Part shown: in pieces, positions 3,785 through 56,169 of the stretch
Layout of the letters: each line of letters starts with the position of its first letter
Position numbering within the stretch: the first letter of the stretch is position 1
Origin: an uncultured Desulfobacterales bacterium
GTDB lineage: Bacteria > Desulfobacterota > Desulfobacteria > Desulfobacterales > C00003060
Assembly: GCA_964502365.1 (NCBI GenBank)
Contig: CAZCWQ010000004.1
Location: 1 to 59,274, forward strand
Reading direction: 5' to 3'
DNA length: 59,274 nt
Made by a program: the position numbers and the translations under genes
Notes under the pieces: model-generated
What the model saw: the letters and a program-made list of their open reading frames with translations, nothing else
Databases searched by the model: none
Told to the model about the DNA's origin: nothing

Positions 3785-3985
3785 AGGGTTACCCCCGCCA
3801 CAGTGCCGTGTCAGCAGCTTTTCCCGAACCTGTTTGCACAGGTGGGTACCTTGTTGCTCCTTTAGGCTTTTCTGTACCGAACAGAACGTGCACACCAAAG
3901 CAAGAGAAGGTTCCCGTTTCATATGTGTTGGCTCAGAGAAAATCTCCGCTGAACACAAACACGGCAGGGGTCTCACCCGCATTCC
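3785..3985 (-). ncRNA. ssrS: 6S RNA (SsrS) candidate
   Basis: It starts immediately downstream of the zapA stop, as in the conserved zapA-ssrS arrangement. The minus-strand RNA has a long closing stem (GGGUGAGACCCCUGCCGUGU pairing with ACACGGCA...GGGGGUAACCC). Its internal blocks resemble E. coli 6S: CUCUGAGCC.A.A..UGAAAC, AGAAAAGCCUAAAGG and GGUUCGGGAAAAGC. The ends are approximate. Confidence 0.7.
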
Positions 3986-12085: not shown

Positions 12086-12103
12086 ATAGGGCCTCTCTTT
12101 CTA

Positions 12104-13216
12104 TCAATCCTTAAACATAAACCTCCTCATGCTAATATTCATGAGGATCCCCATGCCAATCATGGTCGCCACCAGCGACGAACCCCCATAGCTGATAAGC
12201 GGCAGGGTTACACCCACCACAGGCAGCAGCCCCAAAGCCATTGCCACGTTAATAACAGCCTGCCAGAACATAATGCTGGTAATACCGACAGCCAAAATGG
12301 TCCCGAAAGGCTCCTTAGAACGTATTGCAATATTGAGCCCCCAGATTATTACTAACAGGTACAGAGTGACAACCAGGGCTGAGCCCACGAATCCCCACTC
12401 TTCGGCCAAGACAGAAAAGATGAAGTCCGTATGTTGCTCAGGGAGAAATGAAAGGGCATTTTGGGTTCCTTTCAAAAACCCCTTGCCAAAAAGCATCCCC
12501 GAACCAACTGCAATCTTCGACTGAATAATATGATAACCGGCACCCAAAGGGTCTGTCTCCGGATGCATAAATGCAAAGATACGCTGTTTCTGATATCCCT
12601 TCAGAAAGAACCATGCCACCGAACACCCGAATACACCACTACCGGCCAAACAAATCAAGGATCGACGCTCAATCTTTACAAAAAGAGTCACTGACCCGGC
12701 AACCAAAAGAACCACCAGACCTGTACCTAAGTCAGGCTGCCTGGCGATTAGAGCAAAAGGTACCAAGGTCCAGATAATAGGCCGCCAAAGGTTCTTGAGC
12801 ACAAAACCTTCTTCTGATGTGCGATCAGAAAAATATCGTGCCAGCATAATGACGACGGCGATTTTCACTATTTCTGAGGGTTGAAACGAGAATGCACCCA
12901 GCACAAGCCACCGCTGGGAACCAGACACCTGTTTCCCCACAAGGACCACTGCCAAAAGCAGGGCCACGGAAAAAACGTAGATGGCGACCCCCCAACGGTG
13001 CAGGCACTTATAGTTGAAGAGAAAGACTACGACCATGGCCGCGGCTCCAATGCCAAACCAATACGACTGTTTTAGATAGACTGCCCCCCCCAAATCCGCC
13101 AAATCTGCACTGGCATTCACTGCGCTGTAAAGGGTTAGGATACCGACTCCTCCGAGGACTAGTGTCAAGACCAACATGACCCAATCAAAATGCTGAACCA
13201 ACCTTCGATCAATCAT
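12104..13216 (-). CDS. rodA: Rod shape-determining SEDS protein RodA
   Basis: 370-aa polytopic FtsW/RodA/SpoVE-family ORF. It is adjacent to PBP2. Confidence 0.92.
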   Translation of the reverse strand: MIDRRLVQHFDWVMLVLTLVLGGVGILTLYSAVNASADLADLGGAVYLKQSYWFGIGAAAMVVVFLFNYKCLHRWGVAIYVFSVALLLAVVLVGKQVSGSQRWLVLGAFSFQPSEIVKIAVVIMLARYFSDRTSEEGFVLKNLWRPIIWTLVPFALIARQPDLGTGLVVLLVAGSVTLFVKIERRSLICLAGSGVFGCSVAWFFLKGYQKQRIFAFMHPETDPLGAGYHIIQSKIAVGSGMLFGKGFLKGTQNALSFLPEQHTDFIFSVLAEEWGFVGSALVVTLYLLVIIWGLNIAIRSKEPFGTILAVGITSIMFWQAVINVAMALGLLPVVGVTLPLISYGGSSLVATMIGMGILMNISMRRFMFKD

Positions 13217-44079: not shown

Positions 44080-44171
44080 TGGAAGGGGCAAGGGGAATCG
44101 AACCTCCTCCTCGTTTCTTAGACGAGGCCAACGGGTTTGCAGCCCGCGGGGCGCCCAGCACCTTTGCCCCT
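44080..44171 (-). tRNA. tRNASec-like tRNA with Cys anticodon GCA and U73 (selC*/tRNAReC-like)
   Basis: Hand fold of 92 nt. The acceptor stem is 8 bp (AGGGGCAA/TTGCCCCT) and the D arm is GGTG/CGCC. The anticodon stem GCGGG/CCCGT carries the loop CTGCAAA. The variable arm is CCTCGT/ACGAGG (6 bp). The T stem GG(A)GG/CCCC carries the loop TTCGATT. The discriminator is T and CCA is encoded. Confidence 0.85.
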
Positions 44172-44374
44172 AACAAACCATAGATACGAAAATGGATTTT
44201 GTCTCTACACTCTTTTCTCGATTGGTCGATTCGTACAGATTACGCTGCCGGAATACTGTTTGCTAATGAAAGAATCTTATGCGGCAGGTCTTCTTCTCGC
44301 CTCCGGTCTCCCCTTTTCTCGTGTTCGGGATCAGTTGAGCCTATTTTACAGACATTCTATCTGGAGAATATCAA

Positions 44375-44536: not shown

Positions 44537-46000
44537 CTACCTGAGTTCGGCCAAGTCCCTGGATATGACAAGCAAAAACCCCAAGGGGAAGACCATCAGG
44601 AAGGGTATAGCTATCCACGTCCCTCTTTCCCAGGCAAAAAACAAGGGCAGGAGGGTGTATAAGAACAGGGCTGCATTCATGATGATGTACGACCAAGCCC
44701 GCTGACGGTAGAGATAAGCCAACTTAGGCAAAGGAGCGCCGCCGTGAACACCAAATTTCGCAGTGCGCCTAAAAATACCACCTTTACATATCATTCCTTG
44801 AACAACCGCCAGTCCCAGGCTGGGTGCCAGACCTATGGTCAACATTGGAAGGAGAAGTAGTGGAAGAAAAGGATTTCCATCCTTTTGCTTAGCAGCGTAA
44901 AGACAAAAGTAAAGCATTACAGCCCCGCTTCCAAAAAGAAGAAGGGGAAAATCAGACCGAAACAGTTGATATGGCCCTATTCCAATTCTAACATGAATCG
45001 CAGGATAAAGGGTAAGGGTCACGATGGCACCCAGCAGCCAGCCAAAGTTAGCCAATAGATGTACAGAGGCCTCAACTTTCAGCCGAAGTGGCACAGAACG
45101 GGACAGCAGGAGAGAAGGAAGGATTTTTTTTGCTGTTTGGATCGACCCTTTTGCCCAGCGCTGTTGTTGGCTTCGAAATGCGCTTAGTGTTACGGGAAGC
45201 TCGGAAGGAACGACCAGGTCGTCAACATATACGAACCGCCAACCTGCAAGTTGAGCCCGGTAGCTCAAATCCAGATCTTCCGTTACGGTGTCGGGTTTCC
45301 AGCCTCCAGCTGACAGGATGGCTTCCCGTCGCCAAATACCCGCGGTACCATTGAAGTTAAAGAAGAGTCCTCGCGTGAATCGGACCTGATGTTCGATCCT
45401 GAAATGCTGACCTAGAAGCAAGGATTGAACACCTGTAAGCCAAGAACGTTCCTTATTCAAGAAACCCCAACGGGCTTGGACCATACCAACTCTTGAATCT
45501 GAAAAGTAGGGTACGGTCCGAACCAAAAAGTCACGAGGAGGAACAAAATCAGCATCAAAAATAGCTATGAATTGCCCAGTTGCGTCGGCAAGGCCTTGGT
45601 CCAAAGCTCCAGCCTTGAAACCGTCACGGCTCTCACGACGAAATACCTTGATGTCAATCCCGTTCCCTGACCAATGTGCAACTCGCTCATCCACAATCGT
45701 CCTCGTATCGTCTGTAGAGTCATCTAATACTTGTATTTCTAACCTCCTGCGGGGCCAATCTAGTCTTGCCGCAGCGTCAATGAGACGTCCTGCCACAAAG
45801 CGTTCATTGAAAAGCGGCAACTGGACAGTTACACTACATGGCCTTGAGGCGGAAGGGCCAGCTTTTTCTGCTACGCTAGGATCGAGACGTTGTGAGCACC
45901 AACACGCAAAAAACCACAGTCTGTGCAAACCGTATAGAGCAAGACCTCCCAAGGCAAAAAGATAAACAGTTATCCAAAATTGTTCAATGCAAGAACTCAT
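44537..46000 (-). CDS. Membrane-embedded processive family 2 glycosyltransferase (cellulose-synthase-like superfamily)
   Basis: 487-aa ORF with N-terminal TM helices, DDSTDDT, DADF, a QQQRWAKG (QxxRW) motif and a multi-TM C-terminus. Confidence 0.85.
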   Translation of the reverse strand: MSSCIEQFWITVYLFALGGLALYGLHRLWFFACWCSQRLDPSVAEKAGPSASRPCSVTVQLPLFNERFVAGRLIDAAARLDWPRRRLEIQVLDDSTDDTRTIVDERVAHWSGNGIDIKVFRRESRDGFKAGALDQGLADATGQFIAIFDADFVPPRDFLVRTVPYFSDSRVGMVQARWGFLNKERSWLTGVQSLLLGQHFRIEHQVRFTRGLFFNFNGTAGIWRREAILSAGGWKPDTVTEDLDLSYRAQLAGWRFVYVDDLVVPSELPVTLSAFRSQQQRWAKGSIQTAKKILPSLLLSRSVPLRLKVEASVHLLANFGWLLGAIVTLTLYPAIHVRIGIGPYQLFRSDFPLLLFGSGAVMLYFCLYAAKQKDGNPFLPLLLLPMLTIGLAPSLGLAVVQGMICKGGIFRRTAKFGVHGGAPLPKLAYLYRQRAWSYIIMNAALFLYTLLPLFFAWERGTWIAIPFLMVFPLGFLLVISRDLAELR

Positions 46001-46295: not shown

Positions 46296-47135
46296 ATGAA
46301 AAGGAGTGTTATCATTACTGTGTTTACATCTTTAATTGTGTTGGCCTTGACAAATCAAAGTTTTGCTGGCGCTTGGACGCGAGAAAAGGGCAGTTCTTAT
46401 AACCGGCTTGCTTTCAACTATTATTACTCCAATAAGAATTACATCGAGAACAGTGACAGGGTAGCCTTCCCTAATGATGGCTGGTTTCAAGATGTGAATC
46501 TCAATTACTATGTGGAATATGGACTAGTCGACCGTACTACACTTATTGGATCCTTTTACTACAAGTGGATCAGAAAGCAAGACAGTACAATTAGAATGAA
46601 GACTTATGGAGTCGGGGATGTCGAACTGGCTGCCAAATACAGAATGCTTGATTCCTCTTTCGGTATTCTTTCAGCCCAAGGATTGATCAAGATTCCGGAA
46701 CTCTATGATGAGGACGACGCTCTTCCCCTTGGCAACGGGCAGTATGATTTCGAAGTGAAACTTCTATACGGACGTTCTCTGTGGCCCCACGTCCCTGGCT
46801 ACTGCAATTTCGAGGTCGGCTACCGCCTGAGAGCGGAAGAACCTGCCGATGAGTTCAGATTCGTTGCTGAATTGGGCCTCAACTTTGGACAGCATTTTTA
46901 CGGCCGCGTCAAGGCAGATGGCATTCTGGGCGCTGATAACGGCGAAACAATTGTTGATATTAGTGGCAATCCCTCAATTACCAATGACTTTGATCTGATA
47001 AAACTCGATATGGCGTTTGGATATAAGATCACGAAAAGTTGGGCAGTGGAAGCAGCATGTACCCCTTCGATCTATGGCGAGAACACAGCAGCCGGTACGA
47101 CTTACACGCTGGCTCTGGTGATGGAGACCTGGTAG
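46296..47135 (+). CDS. Putative outer-membrane beta-barrel protein
   Basis: 279-aa ORF with a signal peptide (…LALTNQSFA/GAW), an alternating amphipathic pattern rich in Tyr/Gly and a terminal aromatic residue (…METW). Confidence 0.65.
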   Translation: MKRSVIITVFTSLIVLALTNQSFAGAWTREKGSSYNRLAFNYYYSNKNYIENSDRVAFPNDGWFQDVNLNYYVEYGLVDRTTLIGSFYYKWIRKQDSTIRMKTYGVGDVELAAKYRMLDSSFGILSAQGLIKIPELYDEDDALPLGNGQYDFEVKLLYGRSLWPHVPGYCNFEVGYRLRAEEPADEFRFVAELGLNFGQHFYGRVKADGILGADNGETIVDISGNPSITNDFDLIKLDMAFGYKITKSWAVEAACTPSIYGENTAAGTTYTLALVMETW

Positions 47136-47292
47136 GCGCGTCCGTTCGCCTAGGGCTGATCGCCAAGATTGGGGTATTCGAAGGTCAATTCTGAAAGGGA
47201 AATCTTAACGAAAGGGGGTGTATCGATACCTTAGCACATGCTCTCATAGGCAAATGCCTTTGAGAATCTCTTCAATAATAGGAGGCGACAAA

Positions 47293-49389
47293 ATGAGGAG
47301 GAGAAACTATTACTTATTAACTTTCGTCGTGTTAATTGTTTTAGCTGGTCTCTGCCTAAACGGTTGCGGCGAGTCGGTGGACTTGGCGGAGCAAGGATCA
47401 ATATCAGGTTTGTCTGAAGAAACTCCGTCAGGTTCTGTCTTGGCTTTTGGGACAGGTGATTACCCAAACTCTGAACTTCTTGTGTCTGGAGAGGAGATTG
47501 AAGACAACCTGTCCAAGGTGCGGAAAGCGAGCCTTCAGGCCAGCCAGGCAGAGACTGCCGAATCTTATGACTTCGTCATCATTGACGCAAGAGGCGAACC
47601 ACTGCCCGACCCACAGGACCCCGATTATGACCAGCACCCGTACGTGCAAGGGCACATTCCGGGTGCTATTAGCCTAGCTTGGCAGCAGTTTGGCGCACCA
47701 AACTTGAACCCGGTGTCAGAACTTGAAGATGTCTTGACCAACACAGGTATCACCAGAGACATGACCATCGTCATTTATGATGATACGACAGCATCATGGG
47801 GTGCCGCCGGTCGCGTCTTTTGGACTCTGGAATACTTGGGGTGTGAAGATGTGCATCTTTTGCAAGGCGGCTGGGACAAATGGGTGGCCGACGGCCGGCT
47901 TACTGAAACCAGGGCCAACACTTTGCCGGATGCTCCAGCGTTTGTCGCCCAAGTCAACAATGACATCATGGCCACAAAAGAACACGTAAGTGACCGGCTA
48001 GAGGATGACGACTTCGTGATCATCGACTCCCGGACCGACGAGGAATACAACGGCTGGACGCTCTACGGTGAAGCCCGGGGCGGACACGTTTCGGGGGCCG
48101 TGCAAATCCCTTATGAGTGGTTTTTTTACGAAGACAAGACCATATTGAGCAGCGATGATCTGCAAGACCTGTTTGAGTCCAGGGGTATCACTCTGGACAA
48201 GGAGGTGAGTTCTTACTGCACGGCTGGTATCCGCAGCGGATTCGTGTACTTTGCACTCCGCCTAATGGGGTATCCGAACTGCTCGAACTACGATGGGTCC
48301 ATGTATGACTGGGCTGTTGCTTCCGTGGCTGATCCCGATGTCTACCCCATGGAACAAATGGCCAATTACCAGAAGCTTGTACATCCAGGATGGGTGAAAA
48401 ACCAGCTTATCGACGGGAACAACGCTGGCAAACCCTATGTCATCGTTGAAACGTCGTGGGGCCCTGCCGGCGACTATTATAATGACGGTCACATTCCAAA
48501 AGCAGTACACGTGAACACGGATGAAATCGAATATGACTGTTTCAACCCCCGCAATGACTGGCCTGTAGACCCCGGAGACCCTCCTTGCTGGGATCGCAGC
48601 ACCACTGAGGAGGAGGATGCCGCTAAAGGTCTAGGGCCAGATGACGCGCTCCCTAAAAACTGGTGGAATCTCTACCCAGACCAATATCTACTGCCTGCCA
48701 TCGCCTATATGGGGATTGATAAGGACACGACGGTCGTTGTGTACAGCAAAAGTTTCTCGGCCGCAGCACGGATCGTGTGGACGTTGATGTATGCGGGCGT
48801 TGAGGATGTGCGCCTGCTTAACGGCGGCAAGGACACCTGGGTAGCAGCCGGCTACACATTGGAAACCACAGCCAATGATCGCACCCCCGTGTCTGAGTTT
48901 GACCCCGAAGACCCTGGCGCAACATCAGCCCTTCACCCGGAGTACCTTGTGGATACGGCCTATGTCCTCCAGGCAACGGCCGATCCAAACAACGTCGATC
49001 CTCCTGCCGTGATTGCCGAGATTCGCAGGTGGGAGGAGTTCATCGGTGCCTCCCGTCCCTATTCCTATATCCCCGCTGATGGCCGTATTGCAGGTGCCGT
49101 ATGGGGCCACAATACAGATGCCTTTGTCGACGCTGACGGGACTCTTCGAACCTACACGGAGGTTGAGAAATTGTGGTCCGAAAATGGCATTACCTCCGAT
49201 ATGTCGGCGAGCTTTTACTGAGGGACAGGATGGAGGTCAAGTTTGGCCTGGTTTTTGGCCCACCTGATGGGCTGGGACAATATCACCAATTATGATGGTT
49301 CATGGTATCAATGGACTGAGGGGCTGGATCCGCTGGATCCCGGCTATCCCCCTAACCCCGTGGTGGATGAGGAGCCAGATCTGCCCTAG
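47293..49389 (+). CDS. Four-domain YnjE-like rhodanese lipoprotein with in-frame TGA (49219-49221) at the last catalytic Cys position; candidate selenoprotein
   Basis: The ATG at 47293 follows GGAGG, and a lipobox is present (LCLNGC). The domains run inactive/active/inactive/active, with active loops YCTAGIRS and FY-TGA-GTGWRSS. Reading through the TGA gives 55 further in-frame codons (GTGWRSSLAWFLAHLMGWDNITNYDGSWYQW...) that complete the rhodanese fold. Confidence 0.75.
49243..49272 (+). promoter_or_regulatory. Candidate SECIS-type hairpin(s) downstream of the TGA
   Basis: There are two mutually exclusive small hairpins 22-50 nt after the TGA. One is TTGGCC(tggttttt)GGCCCA and the other is GCCCA(cctga)TGGGC. 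Neither was evaluated with a model. Confidence 0.3.
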
Positions 49390-49694: not shown

Positions 49695-51545
49695 ATGTGT
49701 CTTTACAAAACCATAGCCCCAGACTCGGTAAGAAAAGACTTGGCCCATGACGGCGTTGATTCATTACCTAGGACAGAGGCAAAAAGCATCTTTGAAAAAT
49801 GCATCAACTGTGAGCTCTGCCAAAAGGAGTGCCAACTCCTCAGAAAGTACGGCAAGCCCAAGGATATTGCAGAATCCTATAACCCTTCTGATAATGACCA
49901 TCAGGCTGTGCCCTTTGAGTGCAGCCTTTGCCAGCTTTGTGCTGCGGTGTGTCCCGTGGATGTCAATCCTGGCAACATGTTCCTGGAGATGCGCCGGGGG
50001 TTGGTAAACCAGAGGAATGGGGACTATCCAGAATATTCCACTATCCTCGGGTACGAACGGCGGGGAACGTCCCGTCGCTATACCTACTATGCTATTCCTG
50101 CTGGTTGTGACACCATCTTTTTTCCAGGTTGTACCCTCCTGGGCACCAGGCCAGACAAGACATCAGAACTCTATGATCACATGAAAAAGGACATTCCCGC
50201 ACTGGGGATCGTCCTCGACTGCTGCACAAAGCCCTCACATGACCTTGGTCGACAAGATTATTTCAATGCTATGTTTGATGAAATGAAAGGTTTTCTTATA
50301 AGAAACGGCGTTTCAAGAGTTCTCGTTGCATGTCCCGACTGTTATGATGTCTTCAGAAAGTACGGCGAGGAGCTCTCTGTCAGAACAGTCTATGAGTTCA
50401 TGGTAGAAAACGGTTTGCCGAACAAAGAAGAAGTGAATGGAACTGTGACCATTCACGATCCATGTGTTATCAGGTGGGAAGAGGCCATTCATTCTGCTGT
50501 CAGAGATCTGTGTACAAGAAAGGGACTAACCATCGAAGAGATGCCCCATCATGGGAAAACAACAATGTGCTGTGGGGAAGGGGGCGCGGTCGGTTGCGTG
50601 TCACCCCATCTTGCAAACAAATGGGGAGCTCTCATCAAGAAGGAAGCTAATGGCAGGAGGATTGTTACTTATTGTGCTGGGTGTGCAAATTTGTTAGATG
50701 CCATAACACCCACCAGCCATGTCCTGGATGTCTTATTTGAGCCGGAAACCACACTGTCTGGCAAAGCCAAGGTTTCCAAGTCGCCGGTTACCTACCTGAA
50801 CCGGCTAAGGCTGAAGAAGCGGCTCAAGAATACGGTCAATGCTTCAGTAACACGGGAGAGGACATTCACTGGGGGGGAGGAAAAGAAAAAAGGAACAGTG
50901 ATTAAGCGCGTCTTTTTTCTTTTGGCTATCCTGACTGCGATTCTGGCAGTGCGGTTCACAGGTGCAGCACATTACCTGCAACAAGAGACGCTCAGGCAGT
51001 GGATTCAGGGTTATGGAGCACTGGCTCCGGTTGTTTACATGCTCATATACACGGTTGCACCGGCCCTCTTTTTGCCTGCCCTTCCCATCACCATAGTGGG
51101 CGGAGTCCTCTTTGGCCCGTTCTGGGGCGTGGTTTACACTATCACCAGTGCTACCTCAGGTGCTTGTGTGGCCTTCATCATATCACGTTACATAGCCAGG
51201 GAATGGATCGAGGAAAAGCTGAAAAGTCCGAAATGGCATCAGCTTGACGAGGGGGTGCAACGGCATGGATGGAAGGTTGTTGCCTTCACCCGTCTGATAC
51301 CGTTGTTTCCTTTTAACCTGCTTAATTACGCCTTCGGCCTTACGAAAATAAGATTTATCCACTATGCCATAACGACATTCATCTGCATGCTCCCAGCCTG
51401 CATTGCATATGTTGTCTTTTCAAGCTCGCTGCTCGATGTGATAAAAGGAAGGATATCTCCCGCATTTATTGCCGGGATGGGTCTCATTGTGCTGGTCTCG
51501 TCAGTGCCCATTTTTTACAGACGCTACAAGGCAAAAAAAGGATGA
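49695..51545 (+). CDS. Fusion protein: 2x[4Fe-4S] ferredoxin motifs plus two CCG Cys-rich domains (HdrD/GlpC/LldE-like) plus a C-terminal TVP38/DedA (SNARE-associated) membrane domain
   Basis: The ferredoxin motifs are CINCELCQKEC and CSLCQLCAAVCP. The CCG-type motifs are ...PGCTL...DCCTKP... and HDPCV...MCCGEGG...YCAGC. From about aa 400 there are TM helices and the TVP38 signatures GVLFGPFWG and FTRLIPLFPFNLLNYAFG. Confidence 0.8.
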   Translation: MCLYKTIAPDSVRKDLAHDGVDSLPRTEAKSIFEKCINCELCQKECQLLRKYGKPKDIAESYNPSDNDHQAVPFECSLCQLCAAVCPVDVNPGNMFLEMRRGLVNQRNGDYPEYSTILGYERRGTSRRYTYYAIPAGCDTIFFPGCTLLGTRPDKTSELYDHMKKDIPALGIVLDCCTKPSHDLGRQDYFNAMFDEMKGFLIRNGVSRVLVACPDCYDVFRKYGEELSVRTVYEFMVENGLPNKEEVNGTVTIHDPCVIRWEEAIHSAVRDLCTRKGLTIEEMPHHGKTTMCCGEGGAVGCVSPHLANKWGALIKKEANGRRIVTYCAGCANLLDAITPTSHVLDVLFEPETTLSGKAKVSKSPVTYLNRLRLKKRLKNTVNASVTRERTFTGGEEKKKGTVIKRVFFLLAILTAILAVRFTGAAHYLQQETLRQWIQGYGALAPVVYMLIYTVAPALFLPALPITIVGGVLFGPFWGVVYTITSATSGACVAFIISRYIAREWIEEKLKSPKWHQLDEGVQRHGWKVVAFTRLIPLFPFNLLNYAFGLTKIRFIHYAITTFICMLPACIAYVVFSSSLLDVIKGRISPAFIAGMGLIVLVSSVPIFYRRYKAKKG

Positions 51546-51640: not shown

Positions 51641-52363
51641 ATGTATTTAGGAAAAACCATAGCCCTGCTTCTTCCGGCAAGAAACGAAGCGGCTGCCTTA
51701 CCTGGCGTCCTTAAGATGGTTCCTCAACAGGTGGATCGAGTCCTAGTGCTTGATAACGCTTCCATAGATTCGACTGCACAGGTAGCAAAGGAACACGGAG
51801 CAGAGGTTGTCATAGAGAATAAGCCGGGATATGGGCGAGCCTGTCTGCGAGGGTTAAAGTTTCTCGAAACCAATCCTCCTGACATTGTAGCCTTTGCGGA
51901 TGCAGACGGCAGTGACAATCTTTCTTTCCTGCCTGAGATGCTCAAGCCCCTTGTTAAAGGAGACTCTGATCTGGCATTAGCTTGCCGGATCCCTGATAGT
52001 CACGACGCCATGAGTGCTCAGCAACGCCTGGGCAACTGGCTGGCCACTCAGCTCATACGCCTTTTCTGGCGCCATGTGTACAATGACCTTGGACCCATGC
52101 GGGCCATTGCATGGAAGGCCCTTTCTGAGCTCCATATGAGGGATCCGAACTACGGGTGGACTGTGGAAATGCAGATAAGAGCCCTCAAGAAGCGGTTGCG
52201 GGTAAGGGAATACCCAGTCTTGTACTACAAAAGGGCCGCAGGCCGTTCGAAAGTCAGCGGTTCCTTGGTGGGCAGCCTTCGGGCTGGAATAAAGATACTG
52301 TGGATCATCGGGCGGGAAGCCATTTTGAGAAAATCCAGCTGGCAACAGTGTGATGTCTCTTAA
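51641..52363 (+). CDS. Family 2 glycosyltransferase (polyprenyl-phosphate glycosyltransferase-like)
   Basis: 240-aa ORF with LLPARNE, LDNASIDST and ADADGSD motifs. Confidence 0.85.
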   Translation: MYLGKTIALLLPARNEAAALPGVLKMVPQQVDRVLVLDNASIDSTAQVAKEHGAEVVIENKPGYGRACLRGLKFLETNPPDIVAFADADGSDNLSFLPEMLKPLVKGDSDLALACRIPDSHDAMSAQQRLGNWLATQLIRLFWRHVYNDLGPMRAIAWKALSELHMRDPNYGWTVEMQIRALKKRLRVREYPVLYYKRAAGRSKVSGSLVGSLRAGIKILWIIGREAILRKSSWQQCDVS

Positions 52364-52368
52364 GTCTT

Positions 52369-53850
52369 TCATCCGGTCGTCAATAGACTATTTTGCCGTG
52401 CCACTGACCTGTAGATTGTAATAAGAACGAAGGCTGCTACCGGTCCTATCCACGTCATGAATGCAGTTACGTCACCTTCAACCCATTGTCCACCCAAGGC
52501 ATAGGGTATAAGGACACGATATCCCAGGAAGACTGACCAAGTAAATATTAATCCTGCTGGCCCTGCAACAAAAGGGAGAAAACAGACCAGATATAATGCG
52601 TACCAAGGATGAAGGGTGGGCGTGAAAAGCAAGAACGTTATCATGATATTGTATAGCACTGAAAAAAGCATTGAAATTATTTGCTTGCTGGCACACTGGG
52701 TGTCGTATTCCAATTTCTTAAGGTAAAGCTTAACATATAGAAAAATTGTCGCTGTGAGAAAGGCGGAGCCCAGAGCCAACCTAGCAGCATTTCCGGAGAC
52801 CATTAAACGCCGCAAACTTCGATAGGCAAAGCTGCCAAATTCCCAGTGCTTGGCGTATTCTCTCAGAGTGCCGAGGGCATTTAGGACATCGGGAAAGAAA
52901 GGGAGTGTCAACAATAAGAATCCAATCATGATGCCTATCATTGCAAATGTCAGGCATCGTCTAGGCAATAGGATCAGACATCCTGGTATGAAAATGAGGG
53001 CGAAGAGTTTAACGAAACCTGCACAGGCAAGAGCCAAACCTGCAAACAAAAATAAATGGATTCTAGTTGATAACAAATGACCGTGGACTAAAGAAACTAA
53101 GCCATGGGAGTTATTAGTAGACCGCAAAGCAGCTATCAAGGTCAAGAAGCCAAGAAGAAAAAACAGTAACCCGGCCCCGTCTACATGACCTGAAGCGGCA
53201 ATTTCAAGGACCGGCAGGGGGTGCCATGCATAGAGGGCGGCCCGCCAAGCTGGGAGTTCCAGAGTAGAGAGCAGCCGCAGGATTACAGCGCATGTTGCCA
53301 GGTCCATAGCCACCAGCATGGATTTAAGGCCCAGTACGCTGCTGCCTAATGCGGATCCTGCCATGAATATGAGTTGAGCCGCAGGAGGATAAATGGTGAC
53401 TAGGTCTGGGTGGTTAACTTGTTCCAACAAATTGACTAGGATGCCACCCAGAGGTTGGCTGTCTGCGGGAGGAAGAGAATAAGGATTGTGCCCTGACAGG
53501 GTCTGAAGTCCGTCCCATAAGTATCGATAGATATCATCTGAGAGTTCAGGTGATCGAAACCAAAAAATGAGGCGAAGGCATACAGCCACAAGCATGATCA
53601 TACAAGGCGTCCATTTGATTGCTTGCTTTTCTCCCAAATACAGAGCAATAGCGAGAAGAACAGTCACGTTAGCCGTGACACCAGTGAGAGTGGGAACAGC
53701 GAGCCGCAAATCTGCCTTAATAGCTAATAAACCATAGGAGGCCACGATGAGAAAAGGTATTCCCCACGTGAGCCAGAAGTTCGTCCTCATCTTATCGAGT
53801 ATTTTAGTACCGTCCATCTTGATGCCGTGCGTTTTTCCGGCAGAATGCAA
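52369..53850 (-). CDS. Polytopic GT-C-type glycosyltransferase (DUF2029/GT87-like); the true start may be an internal Met (about 53790)
   Basis: 493-aa ORF with more than 10 TM segments. The first loop has an Asp-containing motif (SDDIYRYLWDG) typical of lipid-linked-sugar-dependent GT-C enzymes. Confidence 0.65.
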   Translation of the reverse strand: MHSAGKTHGIKMDGTKILDKMRTNFWLTWGIPFLIVASYGLLAIKADLRLAVPTLTGVTANVTVLLAIALYLGEKQAIKWTPCMIMLVAVCLRLIFWFRSPELSDDIYRYLWDGLQTLSGHNPYSLPPADSQPLGGILVNLLEQVNHPDLVTIYPPAAQLIFMAGSALGSSVLGLKSMLVAMDLATCAVILRLLSTLELPAWRAALYAWHPLPVLEIAASGHVDGAGLLFFLLGFLTLIAALRSTNNSHGLVSLVHGHLLSTRIHLFLFAGLALACAGFVKLFALIFIPGCLILLPRRCLTFAMIGIMIGFLLLTLPFFPDVLNALGTLREYAKHWEFGSFAYRSLRRLMVSGNAARLALGSAFLTATIFLYVKLYLKKLEYDTQCASKQIISMLFSVLYNIMITFLLFTPTLHPWYALYLVCFLPFVAGPAGLIFTWSVFLGYRVLIPYALGGQWVEGDVTAFMTWIGPVAAFVLITIYRSVARQNSLLTTG

Positions 53851-54643
53851 TGGGGCTGCAACTTATGACCTTGCTCTTATCGAACCAGCGACTCTCAACC
53901 GCAACCTTTCAGATTGGATCGTCCTCGATGCTCGTCCGAAAACCGAATGGCGAACTTCACATATACATGGTGCCATGTCGTTTTCCTGGGAAGACTATAC
54001 TTCAACGGACAAGAAAAATATACCTTACAGGATCTGGTCGCCAGAAAAGATAGCTGCGGCCCTGGGAAACATGGGAATTAGTGAAAGCAGTCGAATCGTA
54101 GTGTATGGAGATGCGGACACAAGCTGGGGGGGAGAAGGATGGGTGTGTTGGGTATTCACATGGCTGGGGCATCAGGGACCCATCCGTGTGCTCGCCGGGG
54201 GGATCCAGTCCTGGAAAAAGCATGGCTTTCCCATGGGGCCACATGTTAGACAGACGGCAGGTGTACCAGTGGAGTACAGATTCAAAGTGAGGCCACAAGT
54301 CAATATCACAACAAATGAGATTGAGCAGGAAAAATCGAACATCGTACTGGTTGACACGCGTTCAACCCTTGAGTGGATCAAAGGACATCTCCCAGGCGCG
54401 GTTCATGTAAAGTGGAACCGATTCTACTCGGGAAAGGATCGACGTCCCCTGAGCTCCAATGAGATGAGAGACCTTTTGCACCGGCATAAGGTTGGCCAAC
54501 AGAAACCAGTAGTTTATTACTGCACGGGCGGGATTCGATCGGCATATGCTTGGCTGGTGCATACGTTATCCGGAATGCCACCAGCACGCAACTACGAGGG
54601 GGGAACGGAAGCCTGGAAGCGTCTTTCTTCCGATTCCGGTTAG
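53747..54643 (+). CDS. Two-domain rhodanese sulfurtransferase (SseA/TST-like)
   Basis: 298-aa ORF. The N-terminal domain is inactive (YGDADTSWG) and the C-terminal active loop is YCTGGIRS. A hydrophobic N-terminus suggests export. The start is uncertain because it overlaps the divergent gene. Confidence 0.8.
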   Translation: MRKGIPHVSQKFVLILSSILVPSILMPCVFPAECNGAATYDLALIEPATLNRNLSDWIVLDARPKTEWRTSHIHGAMSFSWEDYTSTDKKNIPYRIWSPEKIAAALGNMGISESSRIVVYGDADTSWGGEGWVCWVFTWLGHQGPIRVLAGGIQSWKKHGFPMGPHVRQTAGVPVEYRFKVRPQVNITTNEIEQEKSNIVLVDTRSTLEWIKGHLPGAVHVKWNRFYSGKDRRPLSSNEMRDLLHRHKVGQQKPVVYYCTGGIRSAYAWLVHTLSGMPPARNYEGGTEAWKRLSSDSG

Positions 54644-54707: not shown

Positions 54708-54736
54708 TTGACTTGGCCTATTCAGCACCCTATATT
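54708..54736 (+). promoter_or_regulatory. Near-consensus sigma70-type promoter TTGACT-17 nt-TATATT
   Basis: TTGACT is at 54708-54713 and TATATT at 54731-54736. The site is about 55 nt upstream of the ATG at 54791. Confidence 0.55.
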
Positions 54737-54790
54737 GCGTTTCACAAAGTGCGTGAAGAACTTTTAGACTTTGGGAAAGGAGGTGTTAAT

Positions 54791-55051
54791 ATGGAAGGAA
54801 AACATGAACACAGGCACCTGCATTCTCACGAGCACACCCATCTTCACACCCATGAGCACCGGCACGGGGATGAGGTCCACAACCACGAACACTCACACGC
54901 GCACACCCACGAACACGAGCACGAACATTCCCACGAGCATTCTCATCCTGGAGACAAGCATGTGCATAACCACGATCACAGCGGAGACCACGGCACCCAC
55001 GACCATGTCCATCCAGGTCATGAAGCTGAAGTGCACGATCACACGCACTGA
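54791..55051 (+). CDS. Histidine-rich small protein (putative metal-binding or metal-storage protein)
   Basis: 86 aa, roughly 40 percent His by eye, with HEH/HxH repeats (HEHTHLHTHEHRH...HTHEHEHEHSHEHSH). AAGGAGG lies 7 nt upstream of the ATG. Confidence 0.75.
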   Translation: MEGKHEHRHLHSHEHTHLHTHEHRHGDEVHNHEHSHAHTHEHEHEHSHEHSHPGDKHVHNHDHSGDHGTHDHVHPGHEAEVHDHTH

Positions 55052-55110: not shown

Positions 55111-55149
55111 GTGGAATACTTATTCCATTCGTAACATGGAGTGGCTAAT

Positions 55150-56169
55150 ATGCAAATAGATCCTAAGGTCACGGACATTGTTGCCAAGGTATTGGATGGT
55201 CACCTTCTTACACGGGATGAAATCGACTTTGCTCTGAAAATTCCTGCTCATTCTCCTGAGGCTGGCCTTGTAATGGCGGCTGCTGACGCAATTAATCGTG
55301 CAGCCTCAAAGGGCAAGGCTGAAGTTCACGCTCAAATAGGTGTTAATCTGTCACCTTGCCCGAACAACTGTTCATTTTGTGCATTTGCTGCCAAGAATAA
55401 GGTCTTCAAAGAAAGAAATGAACTTAGCGCAGACAATGTTACTAAACTGGCGCTGATAGCAGAGCGAGACGGAGCTAACGCGATATTTTTCATGACTACC
55501 GCTGATTATCCCTTTGGTAAATTCGTAGAGATATCAAAGGAAGTCAGGACAGTACTTGCGCCGCACACGGTCATGATAGCCAATATTGGCGACTTTAATT
55601 ATGAAGAAGGTAAGCGGCTGAAGGATGTGGGTTATGCGGGCATATATCACGCTGTGAGAATGGGCGAAGGGGAAGAAACCAAGATCGATCCCAAGACCCG
55701 ACTTAATACTCTTAGAGCTGGTCGTGACGCTGGGCTGTTGATCGGCACATGTGTGGAACCTGTAGGTCCGGAACACTCCATAGAGGAGATTGCCGAAAAG
55801 ATTCTCATAGGACGGGGCATGACACCCTGTTACAGCGGTGCCATGCGGAGAATCAGTATACCGGGCTCTGAAATGGAGAAATATGGAATGATAAGCGAGT
55901 ACCATTTGGCATTTCTGGTTGCCGTTGTTCGATTGGCCATGGGCAAGGAGGTTATTGGAAACTGCACTCATGAACCTAACGTGCTGGGGGCAACATCTGG
56001 GGCCAACCTATTTTGGGCCGAAGTAGGTGCCAATCCCCGCGATACGGAGGTTGAGACTTCCAAGGGGCGAGGATCGGGCGTGGGATCGTGTGTTAAAATG
56101 TTCAAAGAAGCTGATTTTGACATACTTCAGGGGTCATCAGTTATTTACAGCAACAACCATCGTGGCTAA
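55150..56169 (+). CDS. Radical SAM protein, BioB-like family
   Basis: It has the CPNNCSFC (CX3CX2C) motif and a TIM-barrel-like length. The ATG at 55150 lies 8 nt after GGAG. Confidence 0.85.
   Translation: MQIDPKVTDIVAKVLDGHLLTRDEIDFALKIPAHSPEAGLVMAAADAINRAASKGKAEVHAQIGVNLSPCPNNCSFCAFAAKNKVFKERNELSADNVTKLALIAERDGANAIFFMTTADYPFGKFVEISKEVRTVLAPHTVMIANIGDFNYEEGKRLKDVGYAGIYHAVRMGEGEETKIDPKTRLNTLRAGRDAGLLIGTCVEPVGPEHSIEEIAEKILIGRGMTPCYSGAMRRISIPGSEMEKYGMISEYHLAFLVAVVRLAMGKEVIGNCTHEPNVLGATSGANLFWAEVGANPRDTEVETSKGRGSGVGSCVKMFKEADFDILQGSSVIYSNNHRG

Follow-up and report, generated by a model that had tools for sequence, protein, structure and literature searches.

DedA (VTT) proteins are found throughout life, including the eukaryotic VMP1, TMEM41B and TVP38, and one member was reportedly linked to selenite resistance by Ledgham in 2005. 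A role has so far been proposed only for the COG0586 branch of the family, namely the recycling of undecaprenyl phosphate (UndP), its members being regarded as flippases of this lipid carrier and not as solute transporters (Todor et al. 2023, PMC10127716); none has been proposed for the YdjX/COG0398 branch. The COG0398 proteins have been described as tied to aerobic metabolism, and their commonest fusion partner is a pyridine-nucleotide disulfide oxidoreductase (PMC10127716). Because such fusions have been reported, a link between DedA proteins and disulfide reductases is already known at the level of domain architecture.

A second set of described systems is built around Fe-S proteins with CCG motifs. 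HdrD (of HdrDE in Methanosarcina), HdrBC of HdrABC, DsrK, TmcB and HmcF all carry a domain for two [4Fe-4S] clusters followed by two complete CCG motifs, and the module serves these proteins as a thiol/disulfide active site in the cytoplasm, operating at the membrane. In mycobacterial EtfD (PDB 9ojn) a membrane domain, a domain for two [4Fe-4S] clusters and two CCG domains are likewise carried by one polypeptide. The membrane domain of EtfD is N-terminal and consists of five helices with heme b, and the protein wires ETF to menaquinone; one Cys of CCG1 is lost, which results in a linear [3Fe-4S] cluster, and CCG2 is His-capped and non-catalytic (PMC13083937). The NCBIfam family NF045663 ('diclust_near_Sec', pyridine nucleotide-disulfide oxidoreductase/dicluster-binding protein) couples a related module to a GltD-like NAD(P)H/FAD part.

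The window, that is, the whole 59,274-nt stretch of DNA that was analysed, contains at 49695..51545 (+ strand) a gene, defined by its ORF, domains and homologues, in which a FeS/CCG reductase module is followed by a DedA (VTT) membrane domain. The ORF listing gives 616 aa with an ATG start and no internal stop, which bears out the sequence-only reading of a single ORF uninterrupted at the junction. The FeS, CCG and TVP38/DedA motifs quoted in that reading and its Lys-rich linker were all recovered by motif search; CCG (PF02754) and VTT (PF09335) both score above the Pfam cutoffs on the one polypeptide, and the N-terminal part is CCG/ferredoxin-like as had been claimed, with Fer4_8, Fer4_17 and CCG above cutoff.

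The ferredoxin-like domain (49797..49967, +; Pfam Fer4_8/Fer4_17 at aa 34-91) holds two CX2CX2CX3C motifs, at C36-C46 (C36, C39, C42, C46) and C76-C86 (C76, C79, C82, C86), whose eight Cys are invariant among 77 species, and is predicted to bind two [4Fe-4S] clusters. The first CCG motif (50106..50342, +) is known as a motif, Pfam reporting only the second CCG; it follows the pattern C138/C146...C176C177...C213xxC216, with DCCTKP at residues 175-180, and all six Cys are again invariant in the 77 species. The second CCG domain (50445..50696, +) is recognised by Pfam at residues 251-334 (37.8 bits against a cutoff of 20.6) and aligns by phmmer with the CCG2 region of EtfD (9ojn_A residues 576-713), within which the cluster-D2 ligands lie; its pattern C257-C292C293-C327xxC330, including MCCGEGG at 291-297 and YCAGC at 326-330, has invariant Cys in the same species set. 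Both CCG motifs are intact in each fusion variant examined. With its full Cys sets the module resembles the catalytic HdrB and not the electron wire EtfD.

The best NCBIfam match to the N-terminal module was NF045663 (E 2.3e-67, 227.7 bits, model positions 293-668), and this is the closest sequence family, although the family cutoff of 530 is not reached, compared with 607 bits for a true member (P0250). The fusion differs from NF045663 in lacking the GltD-like NAD(P)H/FAD part (model positions 1-292) and in having a C-terminal DedA domain; two NF045663 members, P0345 and P0355, also carry VTT. The module was modelled by AF2 with pLDDT mostly >85, and the Foldseek matches of the model were EtfD (9ojn, E 1.9e-11), LutA (1.1e-05) and HdrB (8rwn_B, 6.8e-05). 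EtfD is thus the best structural match and also the sole PDB sequence match of the fusion, which differs from it in having both CCG motifs complete and a DedA domain as its membrane part. Of the earlier label 'HdrD/GlpC-like', the first half holds on the grounds of motifs, Pfam domains and HdrB fold, whereas GlpC was rejected, NF008369 reaching 24 bits against a cutoff of 278 and covering residues 30-107 only. The DsrK, HmcF and TmcB models of NCBIfam likewise score far under their cutoffs on the fusion, which shares with these proteins the order of the two-cluster domain and the two complete CCG motifs. Relative to HdrDE and DsrMK, the membrane partner of the fusion is a covalently joined DedA domain without conserved His.

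The two halves are connected by a K/R-rich linker (50745..50894, +; delimited by motifs, alignments and AF2), which lies before the first transmembrane helix and counts 12 K/R against 3 D/E over residues 360-402. It contains a conserved TRER element, of which E388 and R389 are invariant in 83 close homologues, and a strand at 385-387 in the AF2 model. The DedA membrane domain (50895..51542, +) was assigned from Pfam, hydrophobic segments, conservation and identity to YdjX/YdjZ. The Pfam VTT_dom match covers aa 460-577 (nt 51072-51425) and nearly the whole model (positions 1-122 of 123; 98.1 bits against 33.9, E 6.5e-28), and the motif search located GGVLFGPFWG at 469-478 and RLIPLFPFNLLNYAFG at 533-548. 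By tblastn the domain is 32% and 38% identical to E. coli ydjX and ydjZ, respectively, and its probable placement in COG0398 (YdjX/YdjZ/TVP38) is drawn from this identity and the JGI name of the homologues. Within the protein, conservation is highest in the DedA core (column conservation 0.77 versus 0.60-0.66 for the FeS/CCG parts, 77 species), which is therefore more than an anchor. Its AF2 model reaches pLDDT 50-80 only, and a PDB sequence search with the DedA half gave no match. Close homologues retain the two membrane Cys, C491 and C569, with at least 90% conservation each, yet both vary in distant fusions and standalone DedAs, C491 being missing from the more distant fusions examined; a DsbD/CcdA-like thiol relay through these residues is therefore unlikely and was rejected as a general mechanism. 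Reading through the fusion's own TGA stop yielded random-looking tails in the listed cases, and a selenocysteine extension at this codon was rejected on that account.

The FeS/CCG-DedA fusion is real and widely conserved, an uncharacterised membrane protein found in anaerobic bacteria. Full-length homologues with the same architecture and 61-81% identity number more than 120 in NCBI, JGI, ENA and Logan assemblies. Among species-representative genomes, at least 564 of the 599 candidate stretches encode relatives, the best 80 of which are full length and 44-70% identical. Fusion relatives are present in a closed chromosome (OY970295.1) and in the isolates Geomonas paludis Red736 and Geomonas silvestris Red330. 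The homologue alignments are unbroken over residues 350-420, and GC content is flat throughout the gene (0.46-0.52). The fusion had been presented as unusual, which overstates the case: the FeS/CCG-DedA family is common in anaerobic Thermodesulfobacteriota and Nitrospirota, and JGI already names the homologues 'YdjX (TVP38/TMEM64 family)/Fe-S oxidoreductase', a name covering both halves. The remark that redox coupling had not been shown for DedA proteins was also too strong, given the published fusions of DedA with flavoprotein disulfide reductases (PF07992/PF02852; PMC10127716). The present protein follows the same logic of attaching DedA to a disulfide reductase in the cytoplasm, but here an oxygen-sensitive FeS/CCG reductase takes the place of the flavoenzyme, and the hosts are anaerobes, as opposed to the aerobic association described for COG0398. 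No Pyr_redox domain was matched by Pfam in the fusion protein, while PF07992 is present in its relatives P0345 and P0355. Neither a description of the FeS/CCG version nor experimental work on it was found in the literature.

The same modules also occur in other combinations. In P0132, P0135, P0145 and P0255 the order is reversed, VTT preceding FeS/CCG, and the DedA domains of these proteins are 23-31% identical to that of the window, compared with 61-65% for standalone DedAs. FeS/CCG and VTT were fused independently at least twice, in different DedA lineages. Triple fusions of VTT, a GltD-like NAD(P)H/FAD module and FeS/CCG were found in P0345 and P0355, and at loci L088 and L093 the differently built triple fusion has around it the same neighbour set as the fusion described here. 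Taken with the COG0398 flavoprotein fusions, the triple fusions indicate that DedA commonly pairs with a disulfide reductase on the cytoplasmic side that has an electron input of its own. Elsewhere the FeS/CCG module stands alone, is joined directly to two rhodanese domains (P0142) or is joined to an MprF-type flippase-like LPG_synthase_TM domain (P0137); VTT is joined to DUF3047 in P0253, and in 841-aa variants a second DedA-like protein (c9_219) is joined to the fusion. Functional coupling of the two halves is supported by the sequence comparisons.

Upstream of the fusion, the window encodes a multi-rhodanese protein (47218..49389, +; domain searches and active-site alignment) with a likely start at 47293, a lipoprotein-like signal and, in its active-site loop (FY-U-GTGWRSS), an in-frame TGA codon at 49219-49221. 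This codon is probably read as selenocysteine, judging from the active-site alignment and from the recurrence of such rhodaneses in L008, L046 and L078; a hairpin that starts 7 nt after the UGA offers no SECIS support, being energetically no more favourable than shuffled sequences (z 0.06). Further upstream are an XagA-like outer-membrane beta-barrel with the COG4313-channel fold (46296..47135, +; JGI name 'XagA', AF2 pLDDT 87, Foldseek match 4rl8 with TM 0.69-0.72) and an XagB-like family-2 glycosyltransferase (GT2/GT21) with C-terminal membrane helices (44537..46000, -; domain searches), of which L088 has a 44% identical copy. On the other side, 95 nt 3' of the fusion, domain searches identified a small GT2 resembling polyprenyl-phosphate hexose synthases (AglJ/DPM1-like; 51641..52363, +). 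The next gene (52369..53850, -) encodes a polytopic membrane protein with no direct Pfam match, probably of GT-C type (GT87/MptA_B-like) according to its 29% identical homologue in L088, which matches PF26314 MptA_B_family and, weakly, GT87. It is overlapped by a second rhodanese gene (53747..54643, +) with two rhodanese domains and an uncertain annotated start, and a BioB/PylB-like radical SAM gene follows at 55141..56169 (+), both assigned by domain searches. The NCBIfam family 'rhoda_near_glyco' matches the rhodaneses of the window weakly. Promoter- and terminator-like sites occur at background frequency only and say nothing about operon boundaries.

Recurring partners were found at 60 of the 76 species loci compared, the remaining 16, including that of the closed chromosome (L009), having none. 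A rhodanese lies within 10 kb of the fusion in 39/76 loci; sequence-called rhodaneses with an active-site selenocysteine adjoin it in the window and in L008, L046 and L078, and the periplasmic rhodanese c5_171, another of the neighbours, is similar to TsoB, a rhodanese/DsbD-like selenoprotein, over the N-terminal part of the latter. An XagA-like barrel adjoins the fusion in 21 loci, with XagB-like GT2 in 20 and a GT-C-like protein in 19; the small GT2 (GT2_240a) follows the fusion in 15, with a median gap of 13 nt, and any member of this glycosyltransferase set is present in 28/76. ArsS, TIGR04283, TIGR04282 or DUF3047 is encoded nearby in 24 loci, and the BioB/PylB-like radical SAM gene in 10, directly adjacent to the fusion in the closest relative (L006). 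Downstream of the fusion, 20 loci encode YdjY-domain proteins and the second DedA-like protein c9_219, a set that never occurs together with the glycosyltransferase set (0 loci). The E. coli locus ydjX-ydjY-ydjZ-ynjA (AhpD-like)-ynjBCD-ynjE (rhodanese) shares YdjY-domain proteins, a rhodanese and a second DedA with the fusion loci. In Desulfitibacter, a true NF045663 member adjoins a YedE/YeeE-type Sulf_transp gene and TusA, and a set of rhodanese, VTT and ABC genes lies about 5 kb from it. Together, the conserved neighbours restrict the chemistry to carriers of sulfur, selenium or metalloids and to a glycoconjugate pathway of the envelope.

The reading that we favour, tentatively and at a little less than even confidence, is that the fusion is a catalytic reductase of the HdrD type, seated on the cytoplasmic side of a DedA domain that is itself a working conduit, and acts on a cargo that bears sulfur or selenium; in this proposal we infer which clusters are bound, that catalysis takes place, which way transport runs and what is carried. 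Such a cargo is suggested by the rhodaneses near the fusion, some of them with selenocysteine, by the FeS/CCG-rhodanese protein P0142, by the Desulfitibacter and E. coli loci, by the YdjY/c9_219 set and by the reported tie of a DedA protein to selenite resistance. The N-terminal 390 residues would form a cytoplasmic HdrD-type module permanently tethered to the cytoplasmic face of the YdjX-type (COG0398) DedA domain, and two cubane [4Fe-4S] clusters would lead to two CCG-domain (HdrB-like, noncubane) clusters that make up a thiol/disulfide-type active site. The DedA domain would move or present the cargo at the inner membrane and exchange it with the rhodaneses of the periplasm, which in turn would exchange it with the XagA/COG4313-like channel of the outer membrane; the CCG site would then reduce a bond of the persulfide, polysulfide, thiosulfate or seleno-trisulfide type. 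Ferredoxin or a partner protein may donate electrons to the ferredoxin-like domain, and in the triple-fusion relatives they would come from NAD(P)H via the GltD-like flavin module. The sulfur/selenium uptake system YeeE/YedE (TsuA)-TusA and the transmembrane thiol relays of DsbD/CcdA also pair a membrane conduit with sulfur-carrier or thiol chemistry, a functional analogy only, as neither has a sequence relationship to the fusion.

Some observations sit less well with a sulfur or selenium cargo: the tightest-linked downstream gene encodes a polyprenyl-phosphate-type GT2 and not a sulfur protein, 16/76 loci have no recurring partner, and the COG0586 DedAs are lipid-carrier flippases. The main rival, which we consider possible though doubtful, keeps the same architecture and assumes a lipid cargo. 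That is, DedA would flip a polyprenyl-phosphate(-sugar) or other lipid-linked intermediate of an xagAB/GT2/GT-C glycoconjugate pathway, and FeS/CCG would reduce or redox-control this intermediate. With the ArsS/TIGR04282/TIGR04283 genes taking part in its synthesis, the intermediate could be a sugar lipid of the thio, seleno or arseno type. The fusion of FeS/CCG to the flippase-like domain in P0137 points to a lipid cargo, and the same can be argued from the VTT-DUF3047 protein P0253, the ArsS-type genes or DUF3047 in 24 loci, the short gap to GT2_240a in 15 loci, the frequency of XagB-like GT2 and GT-C-like genes, the existence of 'rhoda_near_glyco' with its weak match to the local rhodaneses, and the UndP flippase role proposed for COG0586 (PMC10127716). 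However, most loci lack the glycosyltransferase set, which is never combined with the YdjY/c9_219 set, and rhodanese is the more general partner. We also know of no polyprenyl-phosphate cycle that requires a disulfide reductase.

We regard it as distinctly unlikely that the fusion belongs with the quinone-linked enzymes of respiratory type, such as HdrDE, DsrMK or EtfD, with DedA serving as anchor and quinone/quinol site and electrons passing between the quinone pool and either the CCG site or a partner in the cytoplasm. Membrane-bound EtfD is the best structural match, and HdrD-like modules are classically paired with membrane subunits (PMC13083937), but no invariant His exists in the membrane domain (residues 401-612, 77 species), so that heme b ligands are lacking and HdrE/DsrM-style heme binding is not possible; a heme- or quinone-type anchor was rejected for this reason. 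Moreover, the CCG motifs are of the catalytic and not the wire type, the triple fusions have their own NAD(P)H/FAD input, and quinone binding is not known for DedA. NAD(P)H-dependent flavoprotein disulfide reductases, furthermore, make up the other common partners of DedA (PMC10127716). The alternative raised in the sequence-only reading, in which the FeS/CCG module would have no substrate of its own and would gate or regulate a DedA transporter by sensing redox or Fe-S state, is very improbable: Fe-S domains can serve as sensors, but four predicted clusters on a full HdrC+HdrB-like electron path with invariant ligands go far beyond known sensors, and the occurrence of the module alone, with the NAD(P)H/FAD module and with rhodanese fits an enzyme. 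Finally, the chance that two neighbouring genes were joined by an assembly or sequencing error, a caveat attached to the sequence-only reading, is practically nil, since the same continuous ORF occurs in hundreds of independent assemblies, a closed chromosome and isolate genomes, with conserved residues inside the linker and uniform composition along the gene.

The independent origin of the HdrD-type link in both domain orders, and its presence elsewhere with an NAD(P)H module, constitutes strong 'Rosetta stone' evidence that the COG0398 branch works with cytoplasmic disulfide/persulfide reduction, and the fixed companions of the fusion give a testable lead to the role of a DedA subfamily. In a broader and unlikely reading, the fusion would be the inner-membrane core of an undescribed envelope pathway, widespread in anaerobes, that makes or recycles a chalcogen- or metalloid-containing glycoconjugate or lipid, DedA flipping a lipid-linked intermediate and the HdrD-like site performing a reductive step. 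Its other parts would be the periplasmic (seleno)rhodaneses, the COG4313/XagA-type channel, the XagB/GT2/GT-C glycosyltransferases and the ArsS-type radical SAM enzymes. If true, COG0398 (YdjX/TVP38-type) DedA proteins would gain their first defined biochemical role, and by extension the E. coli ydjXYZ-ynjA-E locus would gain one too; any result on the fusion could also help to explain that locus (ydjXYZ-ynjABCDE). Cultured carriers exist, and the hypothesis is therefore open to direct genetics, spectroscopy and reconstitution; in one of them, Geomonas silvestris Red330, the whole cluster is present.

The FeS/CCG-DedA fusion is encoded by a single 616-aa ORF (49695-51545, + strand), in which every motif quoted in the sequence-only reading was found at its implied position. 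In Pfam, residues 34-91 matched a 4Fe-4S dicluster domain, residues 251-334 a CCG domain and residues 460-577 a complete VTT/DedA domain (E 6.5e-28), bearing out the presence of CCG and VTT domains on one polypeptide, and a motif search located a first CCG motif left unscored by Pfam (C138/C146, C176C177 and C213xxC216). The linker (aa 360-402), which sits before the first hydrophobic helix, is K/R-rich (12 K/R vs 3 D/E), and the protein also has a basic C-terminal tail. Base composition is uniform along the gene. A search of 5.8 billion proteins returned more than 120 full-length homologues of identical architecture (61-81% identity; NCBI, JGI, ENA and Logan assemblies), and a relative is encoded in at least 564 of 599 candidate stretches from one-genome-per-species contigs, the best 80 of these being full length at 44-70% identity. 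The unbroken junction that had been claimed is thereby confirmed, whereas the fusion, described earlier as unusual, is in fact common. Hosts belong to the Thermodesulfovibrionales, Desulfobulbaceae, Syntrophales, Syntrophorhabdus, Geobacteraceae, Desulfuromonas and Desulfobacterales, and among their sequences are a closed chromosome of 3.58 Mb and the genomes of two isolates, Geomonas paludis and Geomonas silvestris. Mis-assembly of two genes is excluded by the continuous architecture in many assemblies, the closed chromosome and the isolates. Among representatives clustered at 50% identity, same-order fusions reach down to about 30% identity. Homologues are named 'YdjX (TVP38/TMEM64 family)/Fe-S oxidoreductase' by JGI and 'VTT domain-containing protein' by NCBI.

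The nearest curated family is NF045663 (NCBIfam 'pyridine nucleotide-disulfide oxidoreductase/dicluster-binding protein'; E 2.3e-67), but the match spans only model positions 293-668 and scores 227.7 bits, below the cutoff of 530, indicating that the fusion contains the FeS/CCG half of that family without its flavin half. GlpC, DsrK, HmcF, TmcB, TfrB and LdhH gave only weak matches to the N-terminal module, and membership tests placed the fusion outside NF045663, GlpC, DsrK and EtfD. Thus, of the HdrD/GlpC-like label proposed earlier, the cysteine sets uphold an HdrB/HdrD type, while the GlpC part is let down by a weak match that falls short of membership. An AlphaFold model built from an 83-sequence alignment (mean pLDDT 80.9, pTM 0.74; N-terminal module mostly above 85) had as its top PDB matches M. 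smegmatis EtfD (E 1.9e-11), then LutA and HdrB; EtfD was also the sole match in a PDB sequence search. In EtfD, CCG1 lacks the second cysteine of its CC pair and holds a linear [3Fe-4S] cluster, and CCG2 is His-capped and non-catalytic, whereas in HdrB the catalytic noncubane clusters retain their full Cys sets (PMC13083937). Unlike EtfD, the fusion has complete Cys sets in both CCG motifs, as in HdrB, and across 77 species-level homologues every cysteine of the two CCG motifs (C138 and C146 included) is invariant, as are the eight of the ferredoxin domain. These Cys sets are also complete in each architectural variant examined. Judged by sequence, the module is of the catalytic HdrB/HdrD type, and the fusion protein would function like HdrD/HdrB; it carries a complete HdrC- plus HdrB-like electron path on its cytoplasmic side.

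The membrane half is probably a YdjX-type DedA, 32-38% identical to E. coli YdjX and YdjZ (tblastn). No other part of the protein is as strongly conserved: column conservation averages 0.77 over aa 440-583, with 32 invariant positions, compared with 0.60-0.66 in the FeS/CCG parts. This argues against a role as passive anchor. Furthermore, no invariant His was found in the membrane part across the 77 species-level homologues, and this rules out an anchor that binds heme as those of HdrE, DsrM and EtfD do. The membrane cysteines C491 and C569 are unconserved in distant fusions and standalone DedAs.

Other architectures were collected by an exhaustive search of representatives, followed by Pfam and NCBIfam searches of selected proteins. 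The FeS/CCG module occurs alone (about 370 aa, many clusters), with two rhodanese domains (P0142), with an MprF-type flippase-like membrane domain (P0137) and with a GltD-like NAD(P)H/FAD module, the latter being a true NF045663 member (P0250, 607 bits). Triple fusions join VTT, GltD-like module and FeS/CCG (P0345, 1097 aa; P0355, 1084 aa), and one protein joins VTT to DUF3047 (P0253). The order is reversed, VTT then FeS/CCG, in four homologues (P0132, P0135, P0145 and P0255) whose DedA domains are only 23-31% identical to that of the window, whereas standalone DedAs reach 65%; the fusions therefore arose independently. Because the FeS module is found at either VTT end in different proteins, we infer that both VTT termini lie on the cytoplasmic side. 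The commonest fusion partners of COG0398 DedAs are PF07992/PF02852 flavoprotein disulfide reductases (PMC10127716), so that DedA-reductase fusions are already known as architectures. Taken together with the FeS/CCG fusions, the domain content suggests that what DedA partners share is a disulfide-type reductase that lies in the cytoplasm and has an electron input of its own. Some homologues of 841-842 aa (P0069, P0079 and P0085) are extended at the C-terminus by a membrane region of about 220 aa, which elsewhere is a separate gene following the fusion (e.g. 12089-12745 in locus L004), with a weak VTT match. That gene is usually followed by a YdjY-domain gene, an arrangement resembling ydjX-ydjY-ydjZ of E. 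coli K-12, where the locus continues with ynjA (AhpD-like), ynjBCD and ynjE (rhodanese).

ORFs called in the window and in 86 other loci were clustered by all-against-all BLASTP; at least one recurring partner lies within 10 kb of the fusion in 60 of the 76 species-level loci. Rhodaneses of any kind, including a small periplasmic type like the TsoB N-terminus, occur in 39 loci and multi-domain rhodaneses in 25, followed by a 279-aa protein directly adjoining the fusion (21), an XagB-like GT2 (20), a 493-aa membrane protein (19), a small GT2 directly downstream at a median gap of 13 nt (15), ArsS (14), TIGR04283 (13), and TIGR04282, a BioB-like radical SAM protein, a MauE-like protein and the 219-aa weak-VTT membrane protein (10 each); YdjY-domain proteins occur in 10 + 7. 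The 279-aa protein (46296-47135, + strand; JGI name XagA), the gene most often immediately beside the fusion, has no Pfam or NCBIfam match, but its AlphaFold model (pLDDT 87) is a beta-barrel nearest to the COG4313 outer-membrane channel 4rl8 (TM 0.69-0.72), and also resembles FapF, predicting a COG4313-like outer-membrane beta-barrel. The xagABCD operon of Xanthomonas directs a biofilm polysaccharide (PMC3609779, PMC4643136). MptA_B/GT87 matches of a homologue in locus L088 indicate that the 493-aa protein is probably a GT-C glycosyltransferase. The window holds a 'glyco-rhodanese' version of the cluster: XagB-like, XagA-like, Sec-rhodanese, fusion, small GT2, GT-C-like, rhodanese, His-rich protein and radical SAM. 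In the closest relative (L006, 81% identity) the radical SAM gene and the two GT2 genes are retained but rearranged, which supports a functional rather than accidental linkage. The same partners accompany the triple fusions in L088 and L093 (XagA-like 40%, small GT2 45%, XagB-like 44% and GT-C-like 29% identity, plus rhodaneses). In Desulfitibacter alkalitolerans (KK211100.1, 8001-18199), a true NF045663 gene immediately precedes a YedE/YeeE-type Sulf_transp gene that is split in two around a TusA gene, and a LysR-rhodanese-VTT-ABC transporter set follows about 5 kb further. In the window, the 298-aa rhodanese ORF and the divergent 493-aa ORF share about 100 nt at their 5' ends (53747-53850), so translation of one or both probably begins at a more internal codon. 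Between this rhodanese gene and the BioB-like radical SAM gene, a 112-aa protein without family match (54713-55051, + strand) consists almost entirely of HxH/HEH repeats and is presumably metal-binding.

The multi-rhodanese gene upstream of the fusion (47218-49389, + strand) contains an in-frame TGA (49219-49221) that is read through to a TAG stop (49387-49389). The TGA occupies the active-site Cys position (FY-U-GTGWRSS), as it does beside the fusion in three other loci (L008, L046 and L078), and the product would by its sequence belong to the selenocysteine rhodaneses of UxxG type, a known type that appears in a 2026 selenoproteome review (PMC13188914). The hairpin after this UGA was statistically undistinctive. 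Adjoining the cluster are a tRNA-Sec-like gene (44083-44172, - strand; Rfam, 50 bits) with a Cys anticodon, GCA, by ARAGORN and discriminator base U, and, directly after it on the same strand, a SelB-like elongation-factor gene (42083 to about 44070), a pair that fits the selC* tRNA-Cys/selB* pair of Mukai et al. 2017 (PMC5389517). In locus L017, an ArsS gene (TIGR04167; 16314-17324, + strand) beside the fusion ends in ...CTAGAGFT-TGA-NGAITA where Cys forms have ...CTAGAGSSC.G, and hence represents a selenocysteine (GxxU) form.

The DedA domain is thus strongly constrained, was fused independently and stands in a sulfur/selenium-carrier context. The two cubane clusters would receive electrons from ferredoxin or a partner protein (in the triple fusions, from NAD(P)H) and hand them on to the CCG site, which may reduce a bond containing sulfur or selenium in a cargo; the DedA domain would move or present this cargo at the membrane, and the cargo would exchange with the rhodaneses of the periplasm and with the outer-membrane channel. 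The main rival leaves this coupling unchanged and proposes as cargo a lipid-linked intermediate from the neighbouring glycosyltransferase and ArsS pathways. The tight linkage of the small GT2, the flippase-like fusion P0137 and the UndP-flippase role proposed for COG0586 DedAs speak for it, but just 28 of the 76 loci contain the glycosyltransferase set, in none of them alongside the YdjY set, and none of the known carrier-lipid cycles requires a reductase. A quinone-linked role like that of HdrDE/EtfD is less likely, as is a pure sensor role of the FeS/CCG module. The literature searched gave no account of the FeS/CCG-DedA family, of its fusions in either order and in triple form, or of its conserved neighbourhood; ordinary in abundance and uncharacterised in function, the fusion offers a good way into the question of the COG0398 DedA role. 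Elsewhere in the window, the edge carries a 16S rRNA gene fragment, its 5' part (1-357, - strand), and a 6S RNA gene lies at 3788-3973 (- strand).
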